54,492 nucleotides of DNA from Asterionella formosa (GCA_002256025.1 NKIB01013636.1:1-54492), one strand, 5' to 3'; shown: positions 13,580-39,427, counted from the stretch's first letter. Notes: generated by a model from the sequence alone, not told the origin. Numbers and translations: made by a program.

Positions 13580-16500
13580 TTATACCACGACTGCTGGCTG
13601 TGTCGCTTTGGCAGAGCCACCCTTCCTCTTGTTTCGTCGATCCGCTTCAACTAGTCGCCGCAACTCTCCGTTTCTAATAGCGAGCAACTCGCTTGGACTA
13701 CCATATTCTAACAGCTTTCCATCTCCAAGAACAGCAATTTTGTCGTATCCCAGAACTGTGTCTAGTCGATGGGCAACAGTGAGGACAGTTACACCTTTGT
13801 CAACGAATTCACGACGAATAGTTTCTTGTACTTGAGCATCAGTGTTGCCATCCACCGAAGAAGTTGCCTCATCCATCACCAATATTTTGGATCTTCTCAG
13901 CAATGCTCGTGCCAAACAAATCAATTGGCGTTGTCCTGCGCTTAGATTCTTTCCTCCTTCGCTGATGTATGAATCAAGTCCTGTTACAGTCTTCCGAAAT
14001 TGCAATGCCAATTCTGGCGAAGCTGCTTCCAATGCGGCCCAAGCGTCTTCCGGTTTGGCATTTCCAGTTGCATCCAAATTGTACATGAGAGTTCCTGCAA
14101 AAAGGACAGGGTCTTGAGGAATAATTGACAGTGACTCTCGCAAAGTCTTGAGTGATATAGAACGGATATCAACGCCATCTATTTCTATGCACCCGCCATA
14201 CTCAATCTCAACCAACCGAAACAAAGTTAAAAGTAAAGAACTTTTGCCTGATCCAGTTCGCCCAACAACTCCAAGTGAACTACCGCGTGGGACACTGATT
14301 GTGATATTCTTTAGGACCAGGGGAGAAATTGGATTATATCTCATGGAAACTTCCTTGAACAATACATCTCCCTTCCAAGGCCACCCACTTTGTACCAGCG
14401 AAGCATCAGATACAGAAGCCATTGTTATTTCTGGAGGATGGTTTGCATCCTGAGCATACAATTCGACGAGAGCATCTCCCGCATCGGAAAGCTCTTTCGG
14501 CATCACCTCACGATGGTCACGGTGAATGCCTTCGCTATCAAGTAAGGGACCCTTCACTTCGTCTGATTCCAGGTCAGTGAGTTCCTCTACTCTCATAACG
14601 CTCATCATATGAGTTTCGAGATCCGTCAGGGTACGAACGGCCCACGTGAGCAGCCCAGTTATAGCAAGCGCTTGAGTGAGACCCCACCCTGCGGATCCTG
14701 CCTTGAGCTTACCACTCCGAGTCAGGAACACCGAGACGACAGCTGCAATAAAAACTATGGCATTACCAAGATTTTCCAGTCGAATCGACAACCATCGGTC
14801 CAGAGCCTTAACAGAATAGAAAACAGAAAGATTTTGATCAGCGAGTTCTTGGTGTTGCGACGACCATGTCCTACGAGCTAGTGGAATTGATCGAATCACC
14901 TCCGAGCCTCGCAGTGCTTCCCCAAAGTGAGTATAGATCGGCGACCGGCTTTTGCTTTCTGATCTTTTCAAATCACGAGCTGCGGGGCGAAACTTTGACA
15001 TCGTCTTCACATATAGAATACCGATCAAACCAATAGGAACTAACATGCCCGGAGTGATAACACCTGCCAAAGCAGATGCGCTCAGAAAAATTTGCAAAAA
15101 ACAGAAAAGCACCGATCCGATACCATCTGGAAGTGCTCGGTCTACCGTCTCCATTTCTTTTCCGAAGCGCGATAGTAGCTGTCCCGACGGGGTAGCATCA
15201 AAGAAAGACATTGGAGCACCGAAAACTGATTTGAGCATGCGATTGTGGAGAAACTCAGACGCGTTTACTCCAACTTTCATGGTCAAGAAACTTCGTAGCC
15301 AAAGAAAGACGGACACAACAGCAGCTCCATTAACCAAAGATTGAAGATATCTTCCTTGCAACGCGGCAGCCATAGAATTTCCAGTTCCGATTTCTGTCCA
15401 CTTAGCAACAATGTACTGTTGGTAGAACTGAGCACCATTGGCCATGAAGTATGCCAGCACCATTGCAACAATCAAAACAGGATTACGGACTGACTTTAAG
15501 TACGATGTATATGTCGATCGAGGAACGGCACCGGTCGACATGGCATCATCTGTAGATGCCAGCTTCTTGATTAACGAATTATCTGATCCAATGCTGGACC
15601 TGTTGTCAACATCAACGCCGGGAGTTTGTAGTGTTTGCACAGTTGTCTGGATAATCACTCCATTGTCTTCTAAAATATCAGGCGTGACAGGCACAACCTG
15701 GTCAGCCATGTAGTTTGGATACTCTTTGGTACAGTCAACGCAGTCTGGGTCAGCATGCTGAGAATGGTCGGTGCCATTGGAAAGCTTTTCACTAGAGCCC
15801 ATCACTCGCACATTCTCTTCACCATCTTTTGTCTTGGATTCAATGGAAGATACCACGATTTCCGTTTCTTCGTCCAGTTCATCGCAGTCGTCGGCATGTG
15901 TCGAAAGGTTTTGCAGATCATGTCCTCTACGAATAAGCTCGTCGTATGTACCGATGTCGATAATCGTAGAACAAGAATGTGATGATAACGGGTATTTCCC
16001 CATCAAGATTACCCGATCGCATCTTCTTGGGATGGAGGGGTCGTTGGTAACAAGAAGAGTAGCAGCCTTCGATGCACGTAGTCTTCTCGTCATTCGCTCA
16101 AACACTGTAGATCCGACTGACGCATCTAATGCAGCAAGTGGGTCATCAAGGAGGAATACAGTGCTAGTTTCGTCAGCGTAAAGTGCTCTTGCAAGCGCTA
16201 CACGAGCTCGTTGACCACCTGACAACGACGAGCCTCCTTCACCTACATCTGTACTATGACTTAGGACTCCACGGGAGGCAGCTGCCTTTGATTCTGATCC
16301 GATCACCGCGTCCACAATATCTTCGTCTAGACCTGCATCCCGGATAGCAGTTTGATATCTCTGCTCGTTATACTCGCGTCCAAAGACGATCGCATCTCGA
16401 AGGGTCCCCTTTGGCAACCAAGCTTCCTGCGATGCGTAGGAAATATTGCCATGTGCTACGACTGTCGGTTTCTCAAGAAAACTCGTTGGCATATCTGTGC

Positions 16501-18395
16501 CATTGATTTGCCTTTCCAACGAACCGTCCACAATCGCTCTAGGTACTGGAGAAAGCTCGCCTAGAAGGCTCTTAATCAAGGCACTCTTTCCTGATCCAAC
16601 AGGTCCAACGACCGCAACGACTTCGCCAGGCTTGATCTTCAAGTTCACGCCACAAAGCGCTGGGGTGTCCAACTTATGCTCCTCGTCACCTTTGTTTGAG
16701 TTTGACCACAAAAAGTTGCCATGCAACATTTCAATACTTCCGCCACCACCACTCAAAACAGGTAGCGTCTCAACATATGGGATGATCTCCTCTGCCGCAA
16801 GGTAAGTTGAGACTCGCTTCAGAGCATTACGGCCGTTGGCCAATGCGTCAATCAACATCGGGTAGAAGAACAATGGAAATCTGAGTTGATTGAAGAGCGA
16901 AATCGCTGTGAAGATGGTACTAGCCACAATCGGTTCGCCTGTTCGCGCGTATGCTGCTAAAGTTACCACCAAAACCAAGGCAGGCACAGCATTGGAGATA
17001 GCTTGATTCACTGCACGGATGATCCCCCTAGCCTGATGTCGTCGCAACTCTTCGTGTCGATATTTTCGAATGTCATCCGCAAAAGTTTCCTCCCAGCCCT
17101 GTAACTTCAATAGTTTCATATTGGATATCGCTTCACTTGTTCGTCTCGTCCTTGCATCTTTGGCTTCGTTCTCAAACTTGCTCATCTTGTTCAAGATCCG
17201 AAGAGTGATACTATTCAATGGGATTGTTAGTAATAAGACGCCAATTCCCCACAAGACTGAGCGTCCGAGATAGCGAAATAGCAATGTCGTGTACATTGCA
17301 ATCTGAAAAATAACAGAGGTTTAGTAGTCATCCGTTTATAGACAAGTAAATATACACCATGAATCCACTTACCTGCAAGGGGCCGTCCCAGATAGTGTGC
17401 AATTGAAGTGCTGTTGACTCCAAAATAGATGCGTCCGATTGCATTAAGTTTAGCACGCCACCTGCTCCGAGCGCAGCCTTCTCTTTTCCGTCTGTTTCAC
17501 TGACCGATGTTCCTCCTCCACTTGGAAGTCTCAGTGATTTGTCGAATATCAAACCGGCTAGGGATCCTCTGACTTGTGTTGCATACTTGACCACCAGGTG
17601 AAAATACTGATTCTCAATGAGCATTTTGACGGACAAGACTGCAACAAGGGAAATTACCGCAGTGAGTGCTTTGGATAGTGGCTCCTTATTCCCGGACTCT
17701 ACCAGTCGCAATAACCTAGCGACCAACAATGCGGGAAATGCTTGAATGGCTGTATTGACGAATCGAAGAATCCCAGTCAAAATTAACGTTCGCCGTTGCT
17801 GAAGGAGCAGAGCCTTGGCCAGCACTGTAGACTCCGAAGCGACCTCGTTGCCCTTCACTTTTGACTCTTCTATCTTCTTGCGCGCCTTACTGTGACATTT
17901 TTCATAAATGCTTGCCAGTTGAGGGACAGCTGACCCCATCTTTCTTTGCTGAGGTACGGGAAAGGCGTCACTTTCTTCCAGTTGGCGCTCTGAGGCTAAA
18001 TCCAACAACGGGGATGCATAGCTGAACAGGAGACGGGATGCCATGGTTGCATTGTACTCCCCAAGTTTCCACCGTTCGTTCTTCCTTCCAGGGCTTGGGA
18101 TAAAGTGACTTAAAAAGTTGAGGATACCACCACTTGGCTGCGATTCTGAAACTCCAATTGACGCGCTCATGGACTTTGGAGAAGCTAGATTGCTGACAAT
18201 TGTTCCAGCAGAGGTCGGTACGAAGGGCGAAGCCAATGGAAGTACCACATGGGCCAAAACTACGAGTATGGAGACCATCCTGGGCCTAGAGAGCCTCCGT
18301 TTCCGAGACTTCCGTCGCAGCGACGCACTGTCTGATGGTCTGTGATCATTCATTTCGATTTGTGGTATGGTCAACTTGTCCTCTTTCATCTGCAT
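13580..18395 (-). CDS. ABCC/MRP-family full ABC transporter, 2 exons
   Basis: TMD-NBD-TMD-NBD layout. NBD1: GPVGSGKS, LSGGQ, LLDD. NBD2: GRTGSGKS, LSAGQ, VMDE, AHR. Intron 17303-17372 joins WDGPLQ|IAMY. Start is 18395 or, more likely, 18278 (signal-like MVSILVVLAHVVLPLASPFVP). Confidence 0.93.
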
Positions 18396-24155: not shown

Positions 24156-24310
24156 GCCATAAAACAACATCACATCTTTGCATGTTGCTATTTATGTTTT
24201 AGACCATGGAGAAAACGGTGGTGAAGTTGGTTTGCTCATTATGTTTGGCGATCAAAAAAGAGCCGATGTCTTGTGCTCTCCTTTAAGTAAAATCAATCGT
24301 GATGGCTGTG
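24156..24310 (-). mobile_element. TIR-element end (terminus CTGTG|TA), inverted copy of 28673-28818
   Basis: Its reverse complement TA|CACAG..CACGATTGATTTTACTTA...CAAGACA...CAAACAT...TTCACC..GTTTTCTC...AACATAAATAGCAA aligns with 28671-28818. Confidence 0.75.
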
Positions 24311-24603
24311 TACCGGTACATTGATGGGTCCAAGAAACCACATTTTACGGTAACAGTTACATACCTGTATGTAAGTTGCAGGCAGAGCGAGGATAGAACC
24401 CACGAGGTCTCCACGAAATTTTGGAATTTTCCCTACTGTGTACGATATCTACAGTTGCTATATATGCAGCATGATATCACACCGGCTGTGAGAAGCCGTA
24501 TGTAGACCGGTAAACATAGCACCAGGTACCGGTATGCAACACAGACACTCCGGTCGATAAAGCATTTTATATATCAATAGGACTGCCAGTAATCTGCAAC
24601 ACC

Positions 24604-27106
24604 ATGGCGAGAGTTTCCGGCTCTAATGAGGATATCCTCATTCAATCGCTTCAGGCGTCGACGGAGATATGGCAAGCTTTCGACTATCAGAATAAACTGA
24701 GCGTCTTTCTCCAGACCGCCAATCAAATCAAAGAACAAAAGGAATCATCCCTTCAAGCGAGAAAGTTGCTAGCTGATACAACGAAACAGTTCAAGCGATC
24801 CGTCAAGTCTATGGAACAGACTTGTACATCTCTCAAGGAAGTGAATAACGCAGATACAAGTTCAGCAGCTGTAAAGTCCATGGAAACCTTGGGCAAAGAT
24901 TGTCGCGGACTTGTTAAGAGCTATCAAGAAGAAGTTGACAACTTGACGCGACGCTCGAAGGCCAGCGAAGGAGCCTTCAGCACGCTGTTTTCGGGTCTTC
25001 AAGAGGCTCCCGATCCCACTAACCTTCTAGGGAGCTCCTTGGAACTTATTTTGAGCTATCAGACTCAAATGAATCAACTCCTTGCGACTGTCGACGAGGT
25101 GAATCGCGAAATGGCAACGATGGATGAAACCTTTGGTTCTGAACGAGAATCGATGCAGAAAGAAATTGAAAAACTTAAGAAAGTCAATGAAAGCGCTTCG
25201 AAATCTGGTATGACTAAGGAAGACCGTGAAGAGCTGGTTCAGCTGAGAAGTGAAGTTGCTGAATACGAAGTGGAGTTCCGATCCCTGAAGAACCAAGATA
25301 TAACTATCCGTAAGTTGGAGGCAAAGATTCAAGACATGCAAGAAAATTCCAAGGGTGAGCTCGAAAAAGAGCTTTCCAAAGCACAGCAGGACCTTGCTGA
25401 GACTGAAGGTCGTCGGGCTGCGGAAGCCTTGGAGCGTGAGGCTGCCATGGAGCGCCAGGTTTACTCGTTGGAGTTGCAACTCAAAGCCGAAAGAGCCGGT
25501 CGCGAAGCCACTCATGCTCATTTGCTCGACCAAGAAGACGGAGCAGGCGAGCGTGAAGCAGCATGGGAGGCACAACGTCGTATTTTGGTGGATGATGCTG
25601 AGCGTCTTCGAGAGAGTTTGCATGGCGCTACCAGAGAACGTGACGAATTGAGGTTGAGAGTTGGAGCATTGGAAGGGAGTGGGCTCAGGACTGGGAAGAC
25701 ACCCCCTTCTTCTGGTGGCTTGGCTATGGCAGATATGATTCTCGAGCGCAGGGCTTATGAAGCTGAGGTGAGTTGCACTATTGTTTGAATTGTTAGACTG
25801 TGATTTTTTCTTAAACTAAATCGTATTGTTCTCATTTATCTTCTCCTCCTTTAACCAGGTTTCTGAGCTGTCTCATGCTACTATGGCCTTACGCGAAGAA
25901 CTACGATTGAAGGACGATGAAATCGCTGAAGTGAGAAGATCCTTGCAAGCATCAATGGAAAGATTGGAGCAGGAGCGCGACTTACTCTCGTCCGATGTTT
26001 CTAATTTAGAGGTTCGTCTCGCAGCTGCCCCGCCGCTTGCACTTGTTGAAAGCATGAAACGCGAGTTGCGTGTATTGAAACGTTTGGAATACAACGCTGA
26101 GGATGGAGATCACGAGCCAGAAATGACTGGAGTCACGCAAGATGATGACCTGGAAAGTGTTCTGGTTGCTAAACTTCGCCGAGTTGAGTCCGAGCTTGTT
26201 CGAGAACGAAATTATAAGGTTGAACTTTCAAAAGAATGTGATCAACTAAGAAACGATCTAATGCAGGCTCAGATTTCTCGTGCTGAAACCGAAGTGTTAG
26301 TCGCGTCGCTTGAAGCCGACTTGCAACGAGCAATTTCCACTCAGTCTGCCACAATATCGCAAAGAAAGGTTGCGCCGTTCATTGTACGTGTGCCAAACCC
26401 TGTTGATCTTGAGCATGTGCTTGACCCGGAGACCCCACTTCCCCCTCTTCCCCCTCCACAGGATACTCCAAGCGCAGCAGAGAAGGTGGATGATGAGCAC
26501 TCTGTTGCCACTATTGTAATGGCTCAGCGTGATCGCCTGCGTGCTCGTTGTGAGTCATTGGAATCCGAGCGTGATGCGTTCAAACGGGAATTGCAAGGTC
26601 AAGTCCAGGCTTCCGAGTCTTTGAAGTCTGACAATACCAAACTTTATGAGAAGGTTCGATACTTACAGAACTTCAACCAGGCTGCATCCCGTGGAATCGG
26701 CTCCAATCGTAAGGGTGCGGACGAGCGCGATTTGGATCTCGAGGCTCTTGAGCAACGTTACGAAGCATCCGTTGACCCGTTCCGTCAATTCGGGCGGACG
26801 GAACGCCAACGCAAAATGAAAGAGATGTCTCCGATGGAGCGGATTGTCTTTCTCGTGGCCAAAACAGTTTTGGCATCGAAGGAAATGAGAACTGCTTTGT
26901 TCTTTTACGTGATTGGAATGCACATCCTTGTTTTTTCTACTACTTACCATTGGTCTGATTCAAGCTGTGACAACACGGAGCATCACGAAATGCTTTCTCA
27001 CCTTTCCCCCGATCATCATCAGCATATTGTAGATGTTATCAGCGCGGTAGCTCCAGTCGTAGGTGATATGACAAGTCAAACTGCGGGCGATTCCGTTGGA
27101 GTCTAG
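24604..27106 (+). CDS. CASP: Golgin CASP (CUX1 alternative product/Coy1 homolog), 2 exons
   Basis: N-terminal LVKSYQEEVDNLTRRSK..E.AF...L.EAPDP; LKNQDITIRKLE; C-terminal AQRDRLRAR, LKSDNTKLYEKVRYLQ, YEASVDPF..F; TM FFYVIGMHILVF with conserved Y and H. Intron 25768-25858. Confidence 0.92.
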
Positions 27107-27904: not shown

Positions 27905-28672
27905 ATTTAGAGATGGTTGGAAGGAATACAAGAGGAATTTGTGCTGAATGGGGAGAGTTGCAAAAGTCGTGTTGTTTTGATTTTGTGAGATGAAACTGTT
28001 CTTGAGGTGGTCGGCGGGGAGATAAATTGAATATTATTTATTTGAGTTTGATTTTGGATTTTGTTCATTTTTAATAATTGCTAAATTATTTACTCATGCT
28101 ATGCACGGGTAGTTGTTTGAAAGTTGAATTTAAGAATTGAGAACTTAAAATTACTGCAGCGGGACTCACCATAACTGCCGGTAAACGTGATGTCACGGTA
28201 GATGCTGCTTTCGTCTGTGCATGCATTTACATACATGAGTATATTTTTCGTTTTGGTTTGCTTGGGCTGGGCGGCTGTCAAAAATGTTTCACCAAGCAAT
28301 TCAGAATTCGAAGTCCCTGCCGGTAACCCGAATATAAACCGGTAACCGGCTGATTGAGGCATCAAAAGCTCGTCGTGTCGTCTCCACCTCAACATGTTCC
28401 AACGAACAAGCCAGTCAGTTTGAGCCCATCAGTTCATAAACACGGGAATGTCAAAATGAGGAAAATCGCTGGAAAAGGAAAGCAAATGGCAATGACTGGG
28501 GCAATAGAGGGGCGGCCCGAAGCCAGCAAATGTGAGCTAAAGCAAGTCTTGCTCGATTTCCTTTTTCTCTCCTACATAACACAAAAACTTTCTCCTTTTG
28601 TGATAGAAACAACCAATAATCAACAGTTCTACCGTAGAACCTGGTGTCTTGTACCTGGTACCCCTCAATGTA

Positions 28673-28818
28673 CACAGGCACGACTGATTTTACTTAGCGG
28701 GGAGTGCAAGACACTGGACCTTTTTTAATCGTCAAACATTAGGAAAAAACCACCTTCACCGCTGTTTTCTCTAAAGTCTACAACATAAATAGCAATAAAA
28801 GATATATTGTTTTTGGTT
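28673..28818 (+). mobile_element. TIR-element end (TA|CACAG...), inverted copy of 24156-24310
   Basis: tacacaggcacgactgattttacttagcggggagtgcaagacac... aligns with the reverse complement of 24156-24312. Confidence 0.75.
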
Positions 28819-29101
28819 CAATCAGCTTCTAGGATCAATTGAATTTCTATTTTTGGAGCACTGGCATGCCCGAATGTTGTCATGACAACAACAGAAATTT
28901 CTTGAGTGTGTACAATTTGTACATTATTCTACGATCTAATAAATTGTGTAGGTTCTACAACTTTGATCATGATAGAAATTGAGGTGAGCCACCCAAATCA
29001 TTTTCTATAGAATCATCTAAAACGACAATTAAATATCAATTAAAGCAAAATGTGTCAAACAATTTATTTATTAACTTATATCAACACTGCAAAAATGATT
29101 C

Positions 29102-29170
29102 ATTGTGAAATGGTAATGATGCATGGAAGCATGGATTGTGAAATGGTAATGATGGAAGCATGGAAGCATG
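29102..29170 (+). repeat. 33-bp-period tandem repeat
   Basis: attgtgaaatggtaatgatg at 29102 and 29135, with recurring gcatggaagcatg. Confidence 0.85.
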
Positions 29171-29276
29171 ATGGTGATGAGATATCAAAACATTTTGCTA
29201 CTGGTATTTTCCTCATTATACCATATATGTAGTCACCAGTCGATATAGTATACATAACATAAGTACCAGTAGGTCT

Positions 29277-31797
29277 ATGGTGGTGCAATGTGGTGCAGCG
29301 ACGACATGACATCACGAAGTCATTTTGAAATATTATTGTTGCGCATGTGCACCTTTTCAATATTCATCTCCAACGTTCTATCATGCACATAACCACACAG
29401 AAATGCAAATAAACAGCAAACTCACCAAATGTGATGATTGAAAGCGGTCACTGGTTCTTGCTATCGCTAACATGCAATTTCTTTTGTTTTACTAACCAAT
29501 TTACTCTACAATCAACCTTTCCTACATCCGCAGCCTTTGAAGAATTTTGAGTGGAGGAACTGGGGATAGAGACTGTGGAAAGTGGTGTCTTTGTTGCTGT
29601 CGCAATGATTCAGGAAGCATGCGATGATCGGCTTGATGAATTTTACATCAAAGAGTCGCATCCTTTCAGTGACATCTGAGTGGAGGAGACGCTCCATTTT
29701 TCTTTCAAGATTCAAGATCAAGTCAAGCTTCTCATGAGATTTTTTCGTTTTTGCAACCTCAAAAATCTCGTCATATTCTATGGACCCACTTTTCCGGTTT
29801 TTCTTTGGTGTTGTGGGGATGGTAGTAGCATCAGTTATTCGAATTGCATTAACTGGCTGTGTTAGTAGAACCATTTTCCTTTGTTGAATCTTGATAACTT
29901 GTAGTAGCAGCAATAGCATTAGAATACATCCGATTTTCTTCATTCTTCATAACTCGTGCATGTACCACAATGTTCGCAAGACTGAAGGAGATTGGGTGTG
30001 ACCTTGGGACATTCAGTCGATCATGTACATAGTTTTGAGGGATTAAACTTTGGTTGTCAAGGCAAGCACCAGCAAACATCTTGAAATTACAAAGCATGAT
30101 TCCTTTAAATTGATTATTCAATACATTCTGACATTCTCTCAACCCTACCTTGTAGAAAGCTCCGAAATTTCGCACTGAAAAACAACCGATGGTAGGTTTA
30201 AGACTAGTGTAGCTGTAGTCATCTTGACAAATATAGACTTGAATGTACGCACTTTGTTTAAATGATTGTTGTGTATGTGGGCAATTGCTAGCTAGCTGGG
30301 CATCTGCATCCTCAACATGAAACATTGCAGTCTTGAGTGACTGGTGTCGAGCAGATTTCATCAAGGCTTCCTCTGCTCCACCACCCCAACAACCAAACAG
30401 GTACCCAGTCCTACGGAGCATGTGCATACCGACCTTCAGATTCTGCAAACCAAGCACCTCCCTAACAAGTTTAGTTAACCGGTTTGTTCCCACTTTGTAG
30501 GACATCTGCGTGACAAAAATGCCATTAGCCGGTGGACATTTTAATTCGTCCTATGTAGGAAAAAGAAAACCTCCCCTGATCTTTGCACAGTGTATGTGAG
30601 ACAGTAGGAGTGACACTGGACAAAACTCGGGAACTCTTCATCGATCCAGAGGAACAGATGCACCCAGTTTTCGTCTGACTTCTCAAAGACTTTTAGACAT
30701 AGAACTCGGATATTTCCGGCATCATCAAATACAAAATGCTTTGCTTCGAAATGGTCTAGCTCGATGTCCACGAAGTCATCAAAGCGAAGGAACAGAAAAA
30801 TAGAAACCTGGATGATTGTAAATGTCTGCAAGTCAATTAATGAATTGCTGGACAAAAGACGATCACGCAACTGTCGTAACCAGCAAGGTAGAAGCTGCTC
30901 TGTAGGTTGCCTTAAGTAGTCTCGTCTATCCATCCCAATTCTATCCAAACAATCTGTAAAGACCGAATTGTATGCAGGATTACCAGATCTAAGTAGAGCA
31001 GGATGACCCTTGTGGGTACTGCATCCCTTATACCACTCATCAAAGGGCATATCACGACAATCCTGACAAGCCTGTATGTAGTTACCAATTCGATTGTGAG
31101 CTTTGTGAATGCACCATACTGCAGTACGAAATCCCTTACGCTTTTCAGGGGCATTCCAATCCCCACGACATTTTATAGGATGCCCAATGACATCAACCTC
31201 TTCCTTTCCACCAAGATCCAATAATGTCATACTTGATGCGTTGTATTTCCACCATACATACATTACAACGGATTCTACCTTCATCGATGGACAGTTTGCA
31301 GGGCATTTGTCCCTAAGCATCAACAGTGACTCATAATCACCAATCAACTTGAAGAATTTTGTAAGACCACGAAAGTGAACCTCATAGCTTATCTCTGTAC
31401 TACGATACCGGAGTGCACTTGTACCAGTCAATTTTGCCAAACGTCGGTCAACAGATGTCTTTTTCAATTTGTCCAAAGCATTCAGAATTCCTTGGGCTAC
31501 TTTATCTTCAATATCTGCTGGTATATCCTTGGCATATAAGACATCCCGAGGTAGATTGGCAAGCTTTTTAGTCTCACCACGTGTATTCTTCTTACTCATT
31601 CTGAGCAACAATTCAAGTATATGGATGTGAAATCGGCAACTTATGTGAACAAATTATTCAACAAATATTAGCAGACAGTTACTTTGAGGATCACATGTAT
31701 TCCTATACAGTTATGTATATTAATATAGTTGCACGGATTTGATATAGTCTGGTGCAATTCAGGTTACTCTAAGTAAAGTGGTGCAATGGTGGTGCAA
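29277..31797 (-). mobile_element. Crypton-like tyrosine-recombinase element (putative extent)
   Basis: YR pseudogene bracketed by an exact 12-bp direct repeat ATGGTGGTGCAA (29277-29288 and 31786-31797). No RT and no TIR pair around it. Confidence 0.55.
29512..31599 (-). pseudogene. Tyrosine recombinase (Crypton-like), disrupted
   Basis: R (FLFLRFDD), K (KSD), CPV (restored by a frameshift near 30628: PEFCPV...GGFLFP), HxxR (HMLRRTG) and H (SARH). The expected catalytic Tyr reads His (TAMFH, codon 30317-30319). In-frame TAG at 30551-30553 and a 4-bp duplication at 30287-30297. Confidence 0.85.
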
Positions 31798-31859
31798 ATG
31801 CCAATGGGCAGTTGAATTTACTAATTGTTTTCCCTGTTTCATCCCGTTTTGGGAAAAGT

Positions 31860-31993
31860 CCCAGTATACTATTAACAGTCATTATGAAAACGATTTTAAT
31901 GAGTGAACTGATGACGTTTTCTTTGTATGTAAACGCCTGTCGTGCGTCACGTTGCTTATCAATTTCAGCAACAAAATGACCGGATCTTGCAGG
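31860..31993. mobile_element. Solo right end of the CCTG/CAGG TIR family
   Basis: ...gatgacgttttc...aaacgcctgtcgtgcgtcac...atttcagcaa...tgaccggatCTTGCAGG|TA matches both arms of 10712-11697. Confidence 0.75.
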
Positions 31994-32228
31994 TACGCAC
32001 TTTTGCTCTGAAGTTATGCCAGTATGTGCCTAGCTAGGTATGTATGCATGCATTCATATCATGCATGATTATAAATAATGAAGGTCTATCCCTGCCCCTA
32101 TGGTACCAGGTGCCAGCGAGCTTGGTAGGTACATATTACCTGGTCGTCCCTTGGTCATCGGAAATACTACATACCGGTATATGATCACCACATCATGGAT
32201 TTATAATGGCGAGTGTGCGTCGTTATAA

Positions 32229-32271
32229 CAGGTACCAGGTACCAGGTACCAGGTACCAGGTACCAGGTACC
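32229..32271 (+). repeat. (GGTACCA)n heptamer tandem array
   Basis: Five full GGTACCA units plus GGTACC (32231-32271); related motifs continue to about 32345. Confidence 0.95.
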
Positions 32272-32585
32272 TGATACACTGGTACTCCTACCAGCCAGGT
32301 GAAAACCAGTGCACCAGGTACCAGTACCAGTTACCAGGTACCATCATCAACGACATCACGGACAATTTACTAGACTAGTTTACAGGTACCGTACCGGCAT
32401 ACCTAAAGATGATACGAAGGACACCCCTGTTGGTGTGGTTGCTCACATGTCGGTACATTGCTTTTGATTAAAAATACTGTTGGACGACACTCTGACGGAT
32501 TACTGCAGACCTGTGTTCCACTCATCCCTGTCTTTTCTTACTTGTTAGACGACATAGACCGAAGGAATTTCAGTAAGAAGCAAGA

Positions 32586-34160
32586 ATGCTGGCTTCAAAA
32601 CGACTCCTGACACCTTCAGCGCTTTTCCGCCTTTCAACCTTGTCCAGCAGCAAGAACACACCACGCCTAGCAGTTATTCGTTGCTTTTCTGGAAGCGAAG
32701 ATGATCCATTCGGTGTCAATTACAAAGATGGCGAAGGAAACATCGGTCCTTCAGAGGAATTGCCTCCAAAACTCGTCAGGGATAGAATGACCGGAAAATT
32801 GACCGGCGTCGTCGAGCAAACCCTGACTGACCAACAAAAGAAGCTCCTAGAAATGGACGAGATCGACTCGCAAAAGAAGATGATGGACGATTTGGTCGAA
32901 AGCTGGGTTCAATCCGAGAGTGACAAGATTGGAGATCCCATCAAGCAGGCTCAATTCGCCAGTCGCATCCGAGAGGAGACGATGGCTCTCAACGTTTTTG
33001 GAAGATCACCAGAGGCCACTTCCCTTCAGGGTAAACTGGATACTGGTGATGATGCCCTGTACAGTGACCTTTCCTCTGATTTATCACCGAAAGAATTTAA
33101 GTCCCTTCAAAAGTACATGTCTCGAGAGAAGGACTACGAGCTGAAAAGGAATCATGATGATGTTCCTGTCAAAATGTCACCTTACAGAGAATCGACTTAT
33201 GCAAACCCTGATCCTGACCTAGACCTCAGGTGGTTGTCCTCTGGTTCTCATAGTGAAATGGACGGTGGGAAAGTGGAAGACCCATTCGCTGATTTGATGC
33301 CTCATGATCTTAACCCAGCTCGTTTGGTCAATCGGGAGAAGGCCAAGCAAATCCCAACTGAACTTGTTCATCACAACAATATCGTTCTTTTGCGCCGATA
33401 TCTGACACCAGGTGGTCAGATCATGAATAGAGTACAGAGTCGTTTGGGAGCCAAGGATCAGAGAAAGATGTCCAAACTAATCAAGCGAGCTAGGTCAATG
33501 GGGTTGATTCCCTATATGGGACAGTGGAAGGTGGAGAATCACGGAAGCATCTACGATAGCGACATCTTCCTGAAGAGAAAATGGGAAGAAGAGCTAGAAG
33601 ATAGAGGTTTGGTTCCGCCCAAAATCAAGGAAGCTGATTGGGAAGCTATGCGAGAATCTGCGACCCTCAAGTATCAAAAGGAAGCTAAGAGGCATGTGGG
33701 TCTGGATGAAAACCCATGGGAGGCTGATCCGTGGTGCCTTTTGGCAGATGATATTTATTTGGTCATGAAGACCAAGGGTATCAGACTCACAAAGAACAAT
33801 GACGTTTACCTTACTTTTGGAATCTCGCAAATGAAGTTAAGTGGAAGTGGAGACGTTGTATTTGTTGATAAAACTGGGGTCATTGCCGAAGGACGCTTCG
33901 AGTTATCTCAAAGTGGTGCCGTTTCGCTCTCGTGGAATAAGGCAGTGAAGTGGAAGGATGATCATTGGGAAAGCGTGACTACGGCTGATTTGGTTACTGG
34001 CTTCAAATTTACCGATCAGAGCGTTGCCAAGTCTACACTCAGCTATGGAGACATCTTGGGCAAAAGAAAAGTTAGTCCCATCGACGCAATGAAGGCCAAT
34101 GAATTCAGCGCACACGCTATCGAATGGAGTGCAAATGAACTACGTAAGTACGTGGACTAG
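32586..34160 (+). CDS. Mitochondrial ribosomal protein bS18m with long N-terminal extension and extra C-terminal domain
   Basis: Mitochondrial-type presequence (MLASKRLL...IRCFS). S18 core HNNIVLLRRYLTPGGQIMNRVQSRLGAKDQRKMSKLIKRARSMGLIP. About 170 further residues of globular-looking sequence. Confidence 0.8.
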   Translation: MLASKRLLTPSALFRLSTLSSSKNTPRLAVIRCFSGSEDDPFGVNYKDGEGNIGPSEELPPKLVRDRMTGKLTGVVEQTLTDQQKKLLEMDEIDSQKKMMDDLVESWVQSESDKIGDPIKQAQFASRIREETMALNVFGRSPEATSLQGKLDTGDDALYSDLSSDLSPKEFKSLQKYMSREKDYELKRNHDDVPVKMSPYRESTYANPDPDLDLRWLSSGSHSEMDGGKVEDPFADLMPHDLNPARLVNREKAKQIPTELVHHNNIVLLRRYLTPGGQIMNRVQSRLGAKDQRKMSKLIKRARSMGLIPYMGQWKVENHGSIYDSDIFLKRKWEEELEDRGLVPPKIKEADWEAMRESATLKYQKEAKRHVGLDENPWEADPWCLLADDIYLVMKTKGIRLTKNNDVYLTFGISQMKLSGSGDVVFVDKTGVIAEGRFELSQSGAVSLSWNKAVKWKDDHWESVTTADLVTGFKFTDQSVAKSTLSYGDILGKRKVSPIDAMKANEFSAHAIEWSANELRKYVD

Positions 34161-35945: not shown

Positions 35946-36619
35946 ATAGTTTGGGATACAATTCAGCATATCGAATTGAATACACGGTATGAGCGCAGCA
36001 TCAGTATACCGGTATGCATGTATGGCCGGTTTTATCATTTTCTGACTACGTGGTACCAGGTACCCTGGTACCGGGGGACCCATCACGAACCACACATGGA
36101 ACAATGAACACCAGCCAACCACCAACAACCACAAAAAAAGTATACTGGTAGATATGCCCGGTAGTACAGTTTACTGATGGGTAGTTACTACCGGTACCAC
36201 CGGTAGTCTACAAATTATCATTATCATGATAATCATTTTACATCCCATATAGTACCGAATACCGGTACACTAAGGAGCATTTTACAATTGTTTATCATCA
36301 TCTTTCGTGTCACATTGCCGATATCAGTCTGGCATCATCACCAAAAAATAGAAAATGATTCAACTTTTGTCATGATTGGCAAATATCTGATGGAATTGAT
36401 CAAATATAAATAATCTTCCATTTACTGTAATTCGTAGAATTCATGGGTCAGTGAGTTGTTCTCTTATCGATCATAGCGACAGAGAGTCGCTAATACTGCA
36501 GGGCAAGTCTTGTAATTAAGATGGGATACAAGGAGAGAATCCTTCTGGCAAGGAGGTTTTCTGCCGGAACAGGACCTGGGATTATTGAATGCTCTGATGG
36601 AAGGCTAAGGGAACGAGGA

Positions 36620-39427
36620 ATGCATTCTTACTTTCATTTCTTTTTCGTTATCTCAGCCTTTGTCGGGTATTCAGCATCGGCGCTTACACCATCCAGGCCG
36701 AATCCATTTAGGTTCGCACAAGGTAGGTCAAGGACGATCCTCCATTATTCGGTCGAGAGTTCGAGCTCAATTTTATCGGAAAAGGATCAACGCTCCTTTC
36801 TCACTGATTGGGCCGGAATAGAGGATCCAGGCTCACGTGTCTGCGCTTCCATTGTACCCGAGGCGCTTGATCCAAAAGAGGGCTCAGAGGACACCACAGT
36901 GCTGCCTCATTCAATTACTCAGCTCAGGAGCATCACGTGTGATGCCCCTGCAGTTCTCCTCAAATCAGGACCGGGAACTGGAAAGACGTATGCCCTTGCC
37001 TCACGAATAGCTCATTTGATTGGTTCGAAGTCGTGTGGACCAGAGCAAATGGTAGTTCTCAGCTTTACAAACCGCGACGCTCGGAATTTAAAGGAGCGCG
37101 CTATCGACATGATGTTTGGAGAATTGTCGTCGTTGGAGACTTCCGGCCTTGCCAAAGACCAGGTAAACGATCGACTCTGGAGTGGTACCATCCATGCATT
37201 TGCTTCTTCTCTCGTGAAAGCCTATGGGATATCTCGTCGTAAGCTTCGTATTATCTCCAACACCGAATCGAGGATGCGAGTTGATAAATGCTTGCATTTC
37301 CTCCTGGATGAAAAGAACTACCAGTCAGACACTGAAAAACTAAGCAAGATTCGTCGTTTTCATAGAGACGCCCTTTCGGAACTTAGACAATCGAGAGGTA
37401 TGGTTATGCATCAGATCGGACGATGCATAGAACTGTGGAAAGAATCATCTATCTTACCGCCTCCTTCAGTTCAAGGCGTCCTTATTGAAAAAGTGTCGGA
37501 ACCCCGGAGCAAGCAAATGCAACTAGAAAATTGCATCAAAGTTGCAATTCGACTGGGAATTAGTAGCAATGTAGCTCAATTGGCTTGGGAAGTGTACCCT
37601 GAGTACCAAAGTATGCACGAAAAGCACGGAACTGCTGATCCATCTGACGTTGCATCCCTTGCCTACCATCTATTGCTGTCAAATCCAAAGAAACTCACAT
37701 CTATCAGAGGAAAGCTGAAACACATGATAATAGACGAGTACCAAGATGTTAGTATCGCACAGCATTCGTTAATTCGACTAATCATTAGAGGTATAGTGGA
37801 CGAAGATGAGACGTATACTGTGCGACCAATATGTGAGGACAGTGTTGTTCCACCTGTTTTGACAGGTCGAAAATCTGGTCCACTCAGGGATGAACAAGAA
37901 TTTTCCTTTAACGTTCCAAAACTTTTTTGTTGCGGAGACGGAAACCAATCTATCTATGGTTGGCGAGGAGCTGCACCCTCTCTAACTGTTGACGGATTTA
38001 GGAAAGATTACCCGCAAGGTATTGTGGTACCGCTCGAAACTAGCTTTCGGCTTTCAGCTGACATGTGGAATACAGTCAATCTTTTGGCTGATTCTGATTA
38101 CTTTAGATCCAATACAGTAGTACAGGCCAAGAGCCCAATGAGCCAGCTCCACCAAAATCAGTTGCTTCGATTGAGTGTTGACCTTCCTCTAGTTGAGACT
38201 TTGTCAATGATCATTGCAGCGGATTCGTCAGCTGATGACTCCGCTACAATGCGTATTCAAGGTGTTTGGGATGCACGCGAAGAAGCCAAGTTTATAGTAA
38301 AAAAAATTCGAAAACGGTCAAAGAGTCGAGTTACAAGGGTCGTCAATGCCCTAAGATCAGCAACTGGTCATAGTAGCGTCGTCCAAACCGTGGCTGATCC
38401 ATCCGATATTGCTATTATTGTTCGATCTAGCAATCAGATGACAATGATAAAGGAGGCCCTTAACTCCGGCGGTGTTCCTTATGTGGTCTATGAAAGCGAG
38501 TCCTATGGACAAAGGCCGAGTCCAGTTTACCCCTCGGGAGAAATAATCCAAGCAAACCAGATGAAGCCAGTTTCCTTGATGTCAATGCACCGAGCAAAAG
38601 GTGAAGAGTTCGACGACGTTTATCTACCGGGGTGGAGCGAAGGGGAATTTCCCCATCCCACTGCCGTTTCTTCAAATCGCGTGGATGAGGAACGACGCCT
38701 TGCCTATGTTTCCATAAGCAGAGCCAGGAGTCATGTCACAATCACTCATTCCTTTGTTCGGAGGGATTTGCATTATGGACCCAATCTTGCTCAGAAGCTC
38801 GTCACTATGCAAATCAGGCCCAGTCGCTTCCTTTACGAATTAGTTCCTGATGCACAGATCTTAGCAAATGACGTAGTGACGAACTCTGGTTATTTGAAGA
38901 AAAATGAAGTGAACCAAAATGTACCAAGTGTGATTTGGAATCGACAAATGGGTTCAAAGGAGTGGATGGCAGGTCATAATTTACCTTCTCACTTCGCTAC
39001 ATCATATTCGGCGCCGAAACATTTTGAACTTCCCAAGACAACCGCACTCAACACTACTTTTCTCGATTGTCAGAGAAGGCAAAATTCTTTTGCAAAAAGC
39101 CGAGCACATCAAATAATCGTTGTGGAAGGCTCTCACACCGGTGAAAACTTATTAAAGGTGATTTATGGCCTCAATCAGGTGTTCAGAGGAGTTCGTGGGG
39201 CTAAAACAAAATACAAAACAGTATTCCGCAGCTATCTTAAAGATTGGTTCAATTTCACTGGGGGTAGTATTACAACTTTCTCTGACGAGTGGACGCTTGA
39301 AGCGTCCAATATCACGAAAGAGGTGTTGGCAAAGGTTATTGCAAAGCGAGCATCTAAGAAGGCATTTAGTCAGTGCACTACCCAGCAACTTGGTCTCTAT
39401 TTGGTTAGCAAGCTATTTGAAGAATAA
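36620..39427 (+). CDS. SF1A UvrD/Rep/PcrA-like DNA helicase, probably plastid-targeted
   Basis: I GPGTGKT; Ia LSFTNRDA; Ib GTIHAF; II IIDEYQD; III GDGNQSIYGWRGA; IV LETSFR; IVa IAIIVRS; V MSMHRAKGEEFDDV; VI EERRLAYVSISRA. M34 (36620) begins a signal-like MHSYFHFFFVISAFVGYSASALTP; an upstream ATG lies at 36521. Confidence 0.9.
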   Translation: MHSYFHFFFVISAFVGYSASALTPSRPNPFRFAQGRSRTILHYSVESSSSILSEKDQRSFLTDWAGIEDPGSRVCASIVPEALDPKEGSEDTTVLPHSITQLRSITCDAPAVLLKSGPGTGKTYALASRIAHLIGSKSCGPEQMVVLSFTNRDARNLKERAIDMMFGELSSLETSGLAKDQVNDRLWSGTIHAFASSLVKAYGISRRKLRIISNTESRMRVDKCLHFLLDEKNYQSDTEKLSKIRRFHRDALSELRQSRGMVMHQIGRCIELWKESSILPPPSVQGVLIEKVSEPRSKQMQLENCIKVAIRLGISSNVAQLAWEVYPEYQSMHEKHGTADPSDVASLAYHLLLSNPKKLTSIRGKLKHMIIDEYQDVSIAQHSLIRLIIRGIVDEDETYTVRPICEDSVVPPVLTGRKSGPLRDEQEFSFNVPKLFCCGDGNQSIYGWRGAAPSLTVDGFRKDYPQGIVVPLETSFRLSADMWNTVNLLADSDYFRSNTVVQAKSPMSQLHQNQLLRLSVDLPLVETLSMIIAADSSADDSATMRIQGVWDAREEAKFIVKKIRKRSKSRVTRVVNALRSATGHSSVVQTVADPSDIAIIVRSSNQMTMIKEALNSGGVPYVVYESESYGQRPSPVYPSGEIIQANQMKPVSLMSMHRAKGEEFDDVYLPGWSEGEFPHPTAVSSNRVDEERRLAYVSISRARSHVTITHSFVRRDLHYGPNLAQKLVTMQIRPSRFLYELVPDAQILANDVVTNSGYLKKNEVNQNVPSVIWNRQMGSKEWMAGHNLPSHFATSYSAPKHFELPKTTALNTTFLDCQRRQNSFAKSRAHQIIVVEGSHTGENLLKVIYGLNQVFRGVRGAKTKYKTVFRSYLKDWFNFTGGSITTFSDEWTLEASNITKEVLAKVIAKRASKKAFSQCTTQQLGLYLVSKLFEE

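Follow-up and report, generated by a model that had tools for sequence, protein, structure and literature searches.

The stretch of Asterionella formosa DNA analysed here (contig NKIB01013636.1; 54,492 nucleotides (nt), referred to below as the window, whose coordinates are used throughout) carries a mobile element at positions 29261–31866. Its only gene encodes a tyrosine recombinase (YR) and is read on the minus strand from an ATG at 31599–31597 to a TGA stop at 29514–29512; these are exactly the ends given in the first-pass annotation, an earlier reading of this DNA that had suggested a Crypton-like, YR-only element of unusual architecture. Our results make it very likely that the window copy is a dead copy of Crypton type. 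With less certainty, we consider it probable that 29261–31866 is a chromosomally integrated dead copy of an autonomous Crypton-kind DNA transposon of about 2.6 kb, whose sole gene encodes a YR of ~690 amino acids (aa) and whose family is CryptonS or stands beside it.

Residues are numbered after P0005, an intact relative of 690 aa obtained from a word-index search that was limited to longer proteins. The intact relatives found in this way are 679–702 aa long, and P0005 is the closest, with 94% identity over the first 326 residues. When metagenome contigs were scanned with P0005, 136 pattern matches gave two confirmed loci, L001, which is an intact copy, and L002, a second related contig. The run data are all contigs; X1 is an algae metagenome run and X15 and X16 are RNA libraries. 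In the window the gene is spanned by three long stop-free stretches (370, 233 and 144 aa). A tblastn comparison with P0005 finds a single element copy in the 54.5 kb and covers residues 1–690 in four frame segments with E = 0, so the match is far beyond chance. The parts of the open reading frame (ORF) and its lesions are as follows.

30629-31599, minus strand, frame −1: ORF segment 1, residues 1 to ~324 (by tblastn, 326 residues are aligned with P0005 at 94% identity), containing R271 and K306
31107-31012, minus strand: H164, C177, C180, C192 and H195 of the N-terminal region, within segment 1
30786-30784, minus strand: R271 codon CGC
30681-30679, minus strand: K306 codon AAG
30628-30632 (approximate), minus strand: frameshift 1, loss of 1 nt; other copies insert a G at 30628
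30296-30631, minus strand, frame −3: ORF segment 2, residues ~323-436, containing H392, R395, H418, the CAT codon and the TAG stop
30553-30551, minus strand: TAG stop, which is GAG in L001
30424-30422, minus strand: H392 codon CAC
30415-30413, minus strand: R395 codon CGT
30346-30344, minus strand: H418 codon CAC
30319-30317, minus strand: nucleophile codon CAT (His), which is TAT (Tyr) in L001
30287-30297, minus strand: frameshift 2, a tandem duplication of +4 nt in the context GCTAGCTAGC; the 4 nt are absent from other copies
30148-30291, minus strand, frame −1: ORF segment 3, residues ~437-482 (tblastn)
30030-30145, no strand: nested insertion of 116 nt resembling a miniature inverted-repeat transposable element (MITE), with TA at both sides and imperfect 14-nt inverted termini (11/14 matching)
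29860-30029, minus strand, frame −3: ORF segments 4-5, residues 483-502 and 541-578
29970-29974 (approximate), minus strand: in-frame deletion of 114 nt (38 codons), seen as a tblastn gap; the window lacks what corresponds to L001 1817-1925
29853-29859, minus strand: frameshift 3, +4 nt; other copies lack 4 nt at 29853
29512-29862, minus strand, frame −1: ORF segment 6, residues 576-690 and the TGA stop, containing the C-terminal Cys/His module
29619-29617 and 29607-29605, minus strand: C657 and H661, within segment 6

The catalytic set of P0005 is R271-K306-H392-R395-H418-Y427. Codon checks of these positions in the window showed that five residues (R, K, H, R, H) are kept and that His stands at the Tyr position, which bears out the reconstruction proposed in the first-pass annotation. 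The same annotation had counted two frameshifts and one stop. One stop is present, at 30553–30551, but over the whole ORF there are three frameshifts. In addition, the window copy has two harmless insertions of one codon each. The nucleophile has changed from Tyr to His and the gene carries one stop, three frameshifts, the MITE-like insertion and the 114-nt deletion; the window copy is therefore unable to make the recombinase. Note that the 116-nt insertion and the 114-nt deletion were placed by blastn pieces, since a global MAFFT pair alignment misaligned the insert over the deleted stretch. Between the window and L001 there are 50 nucleotide differences over 522 comparable codons, with a ratio of nonsynonymous to synonymous rates (dN/dS) of 0.50, which looks like a mix of neutral decay and of changes that arose between working copies.

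The family of the protein was characterized by profile methods. An alignment of 68 family members (A2) compared by hhalign with a Cre/Dre/Vibrio-phage profile gave a probability of 91.75% and an E-value of 7.6e-7 over 210 columns; against Cre alone the probability was 26% and the E-value 7e-4. The alignment with Cre brings all six catalytic positions into register: R271 with R173, K306 with K201, H392 with H289, R395 with R292, H418 with W315 and Y427 with Y324. Two integrase families of PHROGs are matched, one by 18 of the 68 members (best 3.4e-7) and another by 13 (best 1.1e-10). Sequence searches of the PDB returned nothing significant, Cre itself appearing at 0.7–2.3 with A2. Matches to a coiled-coil protein (E 1.1, middle piece) and to MBP-E6 (0.71, alignment A1) were dismissed as non-significant, as was Bcl-2 A1 (0.023 with A2), which falls on the helical post-catalytic region. 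Judged from these profile alignments, the family is homologous to Cre-type recombinases. Cre and Dre are the recombinases of phages P1 and D6, and the catalytic domain is what the window family shares with them. It differs in having His at the position of Cre W315, ~100 extra N-terminal residues with an invariant C-x2-C...C-x2-H, a C-terminal extension of ~260 residues, no inverted repeats by the core, and in belonging to an apparently multi-copy eukaryotic element.

Two regions outside of the catalytic domain are strongly conserved. In the N-terminal region C177 and C180 are present in 138 of 138 proteins, C192 in 135 and H195 in 136 of the 138. The long N-terminal region appears to correspond, at least partly, to the N-terminal region that YRs usually have, to which a conserved Cys/His motif is added, as the hhalign match to the Cre family starts at Cre residue 107 and the motif is conserved. 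At the other end, the conserved C-terminal extension (~260 residues) contains the motif C-x3-[H/C]...F...H...CC, in which C657 and H/C661 are found in 113 of 113 proteins and F669 in 109 of 111. The module ACFLNHC...KGCGC noticed in the first-pass annotation is this motif; it is present in the window copy and conserved in the family. From their residue patterns, the two Cys/His motifs appear to be zinc-binding modules. The catalytic residues are equally constant: of 153 proteins, 131 extend over all six positions, and R-K-H-R-H-Y is found in 117 of these.

The ends of the element were defined by comparison with other copies.

29261-31866, minus strand: whole integrated copy including both terminal repeats, 2606 nt; the homology of L001 and L002 stops here and the X1 depth drops
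29272-31866, minus strand: one unit with a single core, 2595 nt
31856-31866, minus strand: 5' terminal repeat, AAGTCCCAGTA on the plus strand, with the core CCAGTA at 31861-31866 (TACTGG in element orientation)
29261-29271, minus strand: 3' terminal repeat or target half, AAGTACCAGTA on the plus strand, with the core CCAGTA at 29266-29271
31778-31796, minus strand: a pair of TGCACCAC repeats spaced by 11 nt within the 5' non-coding part, with a degenerate third near 31751-31758
29280-29297, minus strand: a pair of TGCACCAC repeats spaced by 10 nt, located 9-26 nt inward from the 3' end

According to blastn, both L001 and L002 (2/2 loci) link window position 29261 straight to 31866, head-to-tail, via a single TACTGG in element orientation. 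The 6-bp direct repeat TACTGG lies at both ends of the window copy, and the 11-nt end stretches are identical at 10 of 11 positions. In X1 the summed contig depth is 61k–424k inside the element versus 1.5k–9k in the flanks 29072–29195 and 31924–32171. The unit of L001 is 2599 nt long and has one ORF of 2073 nt, a leader of 286 nt and a trailer of ~240 nt. Within 29261–31866 there is no other long ORF, the unit has no reverse transcriptase (RT) or DDE gene, and no terminal inverted, long direct or split repeats were found at the element ends. The lack of an adjacent RT or DDE gene was correctly seen in the first-pass annotation, but the inverted repeats at 28639–28662 and 32231–32254 are not the termini of the element. 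These GGTACC-type arms are copies of a 7-bp satellite, and the homology of L001 and L002 ends elsewhere, at the real ends 29261–29271 and 31856–31866.

Such a unit fits the hallmarks of Cryptons, which are a YR as sole transposition enzyme, absence of terminal inverted repeats and long terminal repeats, and short (4–6 bp) terminal direct repeats that match the target (Goodwin 2003; PMC3212892). Thus the suggestion of a Crypton-like YR-only element is upheld: the 2599-nt unit has one YR ORF, no RT, DDE gene, terminal inverted or long terminal repeats, and 6-bp direct repeats that match the target. YR retroelements and domesticated YR genes also exist in eukaryotes (PMC3212892, PMC13465315), and the window copy could in principle be a remnant of a DIRS, Ngaro or PAT retroelement now devoid of its RT, or a recombinase-derived host gene (DUF3504 or Ndc10 type) that has decayed. 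In this direction, the NDC10_II model is matched by 6 of the 68 members. Domain II of Ndc10/Cbf2 (PF16787) and the DUF3504/DUF3435 domains are eukaryotic relatives with the YR fold, and all of these domains are neighbours of P0005 in a language-model atlas. However, the junction-defined unit holds the YR ORF alone, without the RT/RNase H and methyltransferase ORFs or the split or inverted terminal repeats of DIRS, Ngaro and PAT, and the element is apparently multi-copy, with sharp ends. No DUF3504 or DUF3435 match was found in the 68 members, and the full catalytic set kept by most proteins is unlike domesticated genes, as those of DUF3504 type are without most of the tetrad and the catalytic site has not been kept in Cbf2 and Gcr1 (PMC3212892). 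We regard the retroelement or host-gene explanation as close to refuted.

Parts of the window were found in 20 runs from 14 studies, mostly freshwater metagenomes, with ~0.36 of the sampled words; for X1 the value is 0.68. X1 contains the window flanks without a difference, and its single contigs have a depth of ~800–1100. For the element, 13,832 contig pieces of X1 aligned at 88–100% identity, 3961 of them at >=99% (at least 99%), 6045 at 95–99%, 3516 at 90–95% and 310 below 90%. A few X1 joints lead from the element into other flanks; among the joints listed there is neither an empty-site bridge nor a joint of 29261 to 31866. At the three frameshift sites the unbroken allele has 27%, 34% and 41% of the X1 depth, and the window-type alleles account for 59–73% of the summed depth. 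It means that the lesions of the window are probably common to many copies, and these contig depths would fit a defective subfamily that was amplified after breakage. Contigs of the RNA libraries X15 and X16 carry the element without the lesions of the window.

These data also bear on whether the family is a small circular episome, similar to the 2-micron plasmid of yeast, which has an FLP recombinase, that was accidentally integrated in the window. The junctions are head-to-tail in 2/2 metagenome loci, and the environmental contigs that encode family members are mostly 2.4–3.7 kb, many of them about unit length, as expected if assemblies break at repeat ends or close on circles. A plasmid would be homogeneous, whereas X1 holds thousands of diverged pieces, each near single-copy depth, which is the pattern of decaying chromosomal copies; other copies appear to have different flanks. 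There is no second ORF for replication or partition. L001 represents ~1.4 units and starts with 22 unrelated bases that are not from the element; comparison of its two units shows 3 differences in 1109 positions. An episome is therefore very improbable, and a chromosomal transposon of the Crypton kind remains our preferred reading.

The relatives form a large family. With a profile built from four full-length relatives, 1785 cluster representatives were recovered at E <= 0.001 and 440 at the stricter E <= 1e-30, and most of these matches extend across the whole profile of ~690 positions. No Pfam model describes the family: the three pieces of the window and P0005-8 had no match above the cut-off (a Ribosomal_L11 match below it was taken as chance), and 24 long or named members gave nothing at E <= 0.001. 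With the 68 aligned members Pfam gave six weak matches to NDC10_II (best 1.4e-6) and two to Phage_integrase, while GCR1_C, DUF3504 and DUF3435 were found in none of them at E <= 0.1, nor GCR1_C in the 24 further members at E <= 0.001. None of the 68 matches NCBIfam. Named members come from the oomycete Aphanomyces stellatus (KAF0712480.1 and two more) and from the chytrids Zopfochytrium polystomum and Boothiomyces. The Aphanomyces proteins belong to the same hidden Markov model (HMM) family at E ~1e-144 to 1e-163, with partial gene models, and the chytrid members have the full three-part architecture. In the language-model atlas the clusters nearest to P0005 are from Bacillariophyta and Oomycota, followed by NDC10_II, DUF3435, Phage_integrase, ALOG and DUF3504; a query with the C-terminal 101 residues gave no usable match. 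In cluster listings that covered 30 proteins, the other organism names belong to a few Megasphaera fragments of ~40 aa, which are regarded as clustering noise. The word-index search with A2 returned seven proteins. A scan of viral contigs with alignment A1 gave 332 pattern matches and no relative among them. Fourteen genome-contig loci that match an 18-nt stretch of the 5' end are all chance matches of 18–25 nt.

Membership in CryptonS is probable. Proteins of this group are without GCR1_C, have a C-terminal region conserved in the group, and the elements end in direct repeats of 5 or 6 bp (Kojima and Jurka 2011, PMC3212892); the hosts are oomycetes, including Saprolegniales, and the diatom Phaeodactylum (PMC3212892). 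The window family resembles them in having the YR as the only gene and in the lack of GCR1_C; its terminal direct repeat is 6 bp long, and some of its members are from oomycetes. It differs by the TACTGG core, by having no C48 peptidase ORF, by its chytrid members and by a seemingly high copy number here, most Cryptons having very low copy numbers (PMC3212892). The conserved C-terminal module may correspond to the C-terminal region described for CryptonS (PMC3212892). For the other groups the comparison is negative. CryptonF proteins carry GCR1_C (PMC3212892), which none of the members has at the thresholds given above. CryptonA and CryptonI, which have a DUF3504-type YR and no C-terminal domain, are disfavoured by the lack of DUF3504 in the 68 members at E <= 0.1 and by the presence of the ~260-residue C-terminal extension. 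Starships, large elements with cargo and a DUF3435 YR at one end, are disfavoured by the absence of a DUF3435 Pfam match and by a 2.6-kb unit without cargo, DUF3435 being just a language-model neighbour. Glomhoppers, which are CryptonA elements of Glomeromycota, are likewise single-ORF YR elements with hundreds of copies and mostly kept catalytic residues, but they have other hosts, and their defining domain is DUF3504 (PMC13465315), of which no trace was detected in the window family.

Several observations weigh against the reading as a dead copy of a CryptonS-like transposon. The comparison with CryptonS is by published description, and the core of the element is TACTGG, not TATGG, in which the majority of CryptonS end (PMC3212892). 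A FastTree of 75 proteins, comprising 68 full-length choices out of the 153 and 7 named or labelled ones, with no reference Cryptons included, places the window subfamily outside the 24-row clade (support 98) of named oomycete and chytrid proteins. The YR fold is backed by sequence profiles, and P0005 taken alone matches weakly (phrog_1 at 0.0028 over residues 339–453). Given the 22 foreign bases and the three differences between its units, the junction of L001 may be a genomic tandem rather than a circle. Positions 1–278 of L002 are a fragment of eukaryotic large-subunit ribosomal RNA (Rfam, 168 bits) fused to the element interior, so L002 may have been assembled as a chimera or may hold a truncated copy located in ribosomal DNA. 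We read the X1 data as in the order of a hundred diverged copies, although summed contig depth is no copy number. Moreover, the ratio of element to flank depth is no higher in the RNA libraries than in DNA, which allows no conclusion on expression.

Some of these points would favour another explanation, that the elements are YR-only transposons of a Crypton lineage apart from CryptonS, F, A and I, marked by the N- and C-terminal Cys/His modules. Such a lineage would be in line with the different core, with the position of the window subfamily and its 45 tree neighbours apart from the oomycete/chytrid clade, and with the chytrid hosts Zopfochytrium and Boothiomyces, which are not among the CryptonS hosts given in the accessible part of PMC3212892. 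No Pfam family covers the proteins, and in the literature searched we found no paper on the Cys/His motifs. Nevertheless, every published CryptonS feature is compatible with our family, as far as the accessible text of Kojima and Jurka goes (PMC3212892), proteins from Saprolegniales belong to the same HMM family, and a missing Pfam model is uninformative about Repbase. We consider a separate lineage possible but doubtful. The unusual architecture and undescribed lineage proposed in the first-pass annotation are not supported, as absence of GCR1_C and DUF3504, a conserved C-terminal region, 5–6-bp repeats and hosts among diatoms and oomycetes are as in CryptonS (PMC3212892). We conclude that the element does not represent a new kind but a poorly catalogued member of one already known; intact relatives are common in freshwater samples, and the insertion in the window is an ordinary dead one.

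The anatomy of this CryptonS-like element also suggests how it might move. In the Goodwin model a short core at the joined ends recombines with a near-identical genomic site, the core is left on both sides, and the reverse reaction excises the element (PMC3212892, PMC13465315, PMC9977147). The anatomy fits this model: the core stands at each end, the junction has a single core, and the target resembles the element end. In the window family the recombinase would pair the TACTGG core of the joined ends with a look-alike site (AAGTACCAGTA, plus strand) and exchange strands, which would leave one copy of the core at each end of the element. Recombination between the two flanking cores would release a circle, and integration beside an existing copy would give a head-to-tail tandem. 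Strand exchange within TACTGG, the circle as opposed to the tandem, and current activity are putative. A similar case is CryptonF-1_cRei of Chlamydomonas, where the end motif equals the target (CACCG and CAYCG) (Lopez-Cortegano et al. 2023, PMC9977147). In this element, insertion and clean excision fit the Goodwin model and the copy number climbs despite excision (PMC9977147). It is a CryptonF, a group whose proteins carry GCR1_C (PMC3212892); the window family has no GCR1_C match, a 6-bp core and similarity over 11 bp.

The subterminal repeats may contribute to the recombination site. Around the L001 junction there are seven copies of TGCACCA[C/G], all in one orientation, spaced by 10–12 nt and arranged in two clusters, two repeats just within the 3' end and five at 70–140 nt within the 5' end. 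In the window four of the six TGCACCAC occurrences are at the element ends, all on the same strand, while 2.0 are expected by chance in the whole window. L001 and one X15 contig have 23 nt extra (at 31777 in X15), which make two more TGCACCAC repeats. No inverted repeat flanking the core was found in the junction region. Lambda integrase uses arm-type sites, and by analogy the phased TGCACCAC arrays are probably accessory binding sites that would be read by the Cys/His modules. A palindrome of 22 nt centred on TGACGTCA, which we take to be a CRE/bZIP-type site, lies at L001 2572–2593 (window ~29300–29325) in the 3' non-coding part, just ahead of the TGCACCAC repeats; it is mutated in the window.

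Taken further, the family may be a Crypton family of freshwater, diatom-like algae that is mobile at present and high in copy number (order 10^2 per genome), forms head-to-tail circles or tandems, recombines via a TACTGG core set within a lambda-att-like region whose phased TGCACCAC arms are read by two family-specific zinc modules, prefers GTACCAG-like sites and includes a frameshifted, catalytically dead subfamily mobilised in trans by intact copies. We put this forward tentatively, as one chance among several. If this is true, it would be the first Crypton known to combine a defined att-like site architecture with non-autonomous partners in stramenopiles. No class of eukaryotic DNA transposons is, to our knowledge, less understood than the Cryptons. 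The activity of a Crypton was first observed in 2023, in Chlamydomonas (PMC9977147), and Kojima and Jurka found no conserved nucleotide sequences among Cryptons of different species (PMC3212892). In the literature searched, neither the junction nor the TGCACCAC arrays nor the Cys/His modules were found described. The locus and its relatives supply a precise end and a junction that runs head-to-tail, a core of 6 bp with a look-alike target of 11 bp, and phased subterminal repeats that could be binding sites of the recombinase, together with a family of ~1800 representatives that has two invariant Cys/His modules and is without a Pfam model. The recombination site of a stramenopile Crypton thereby becomes directly testable, and annotation of transposons in diatom, oomycete and chytrid genomes can be improved.

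With regard to the target, a 7-bp satellite (CAGGTAC)n lies at 32229–32343, with an inverted copy at 28639–28662, and has the highest X1 summed depth of the region (~808k). Some X1 contigs place the ends of other element copies beside (CAGGTAC)n arrays, directly or within 25 nt, and the element target AAGTACCAG is similar to the satellite unit GTACCAG. A target preference linked to these arrays is a lead, not a result; the genomic target is expected to be TACTGG inside a AGTACCAGTA-like site, enriched near (GTACCAG)n arrays. Left of the element there is a separate repeat at 28700–29071, with an X1 summed depth of 50k–159k and a 77% similar piece at 24161–24313 on the opposite strand. As a low-depth stretch (29072–29195) lies between them, this repeat is outside the element. 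The left flank also has a tandem repeat at 29102–29170, made of ~2 copies of a 29–33-nt unit containing ATGGAAGC, and one X1 contig has an extra 8-nt unit there.

The 116-nt insertion within the gene has a history of its own. It is absent from L001, and contigs in 4/4 sequencing runs skip over 30030–30145. X1 contigs have 112 loose ends at 30098, which means that the insertion is repeated elsewhere independently of the element; its part 30098–30143 occurs in many other contexts in X1 and is the highest depth bin inside the element. By its termini and repetition, it looks like a high-copy MITE of Tc1/mariner type of this genome. A possible GTAGGG intron had been suggested near 30149 in the first-pass annotation. 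We rejected it, because GTAGGG is the end of this TA-flanked insertion, which has inverted termini and is missing in other copies. The change of TA to TAGCTA at 30287–30297 had been recognized earlier as a duplication, and correctly so, as the list above indicates. The MITE-like insert starts with G and ends with C beside its TA, and the duplication could be an excision footprint of a MITE-like element or a product of replication slippage.

The site of the element is an intergenic gap of ~4.5 kb that is rich in repeats, and the neighbours are ordinary nuclear genes with long unbroken ORFs.

13580-17320: ABC transporter gene
24520-27106: CUX1_N/CASP_C golgin gene
32577-34160: gene for a mitochondrial-type ribosomal protein S18
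36494-39427: UvrD-type helicase gene

Further genes in the window encode Tfb4, an amine oxidase and actin.

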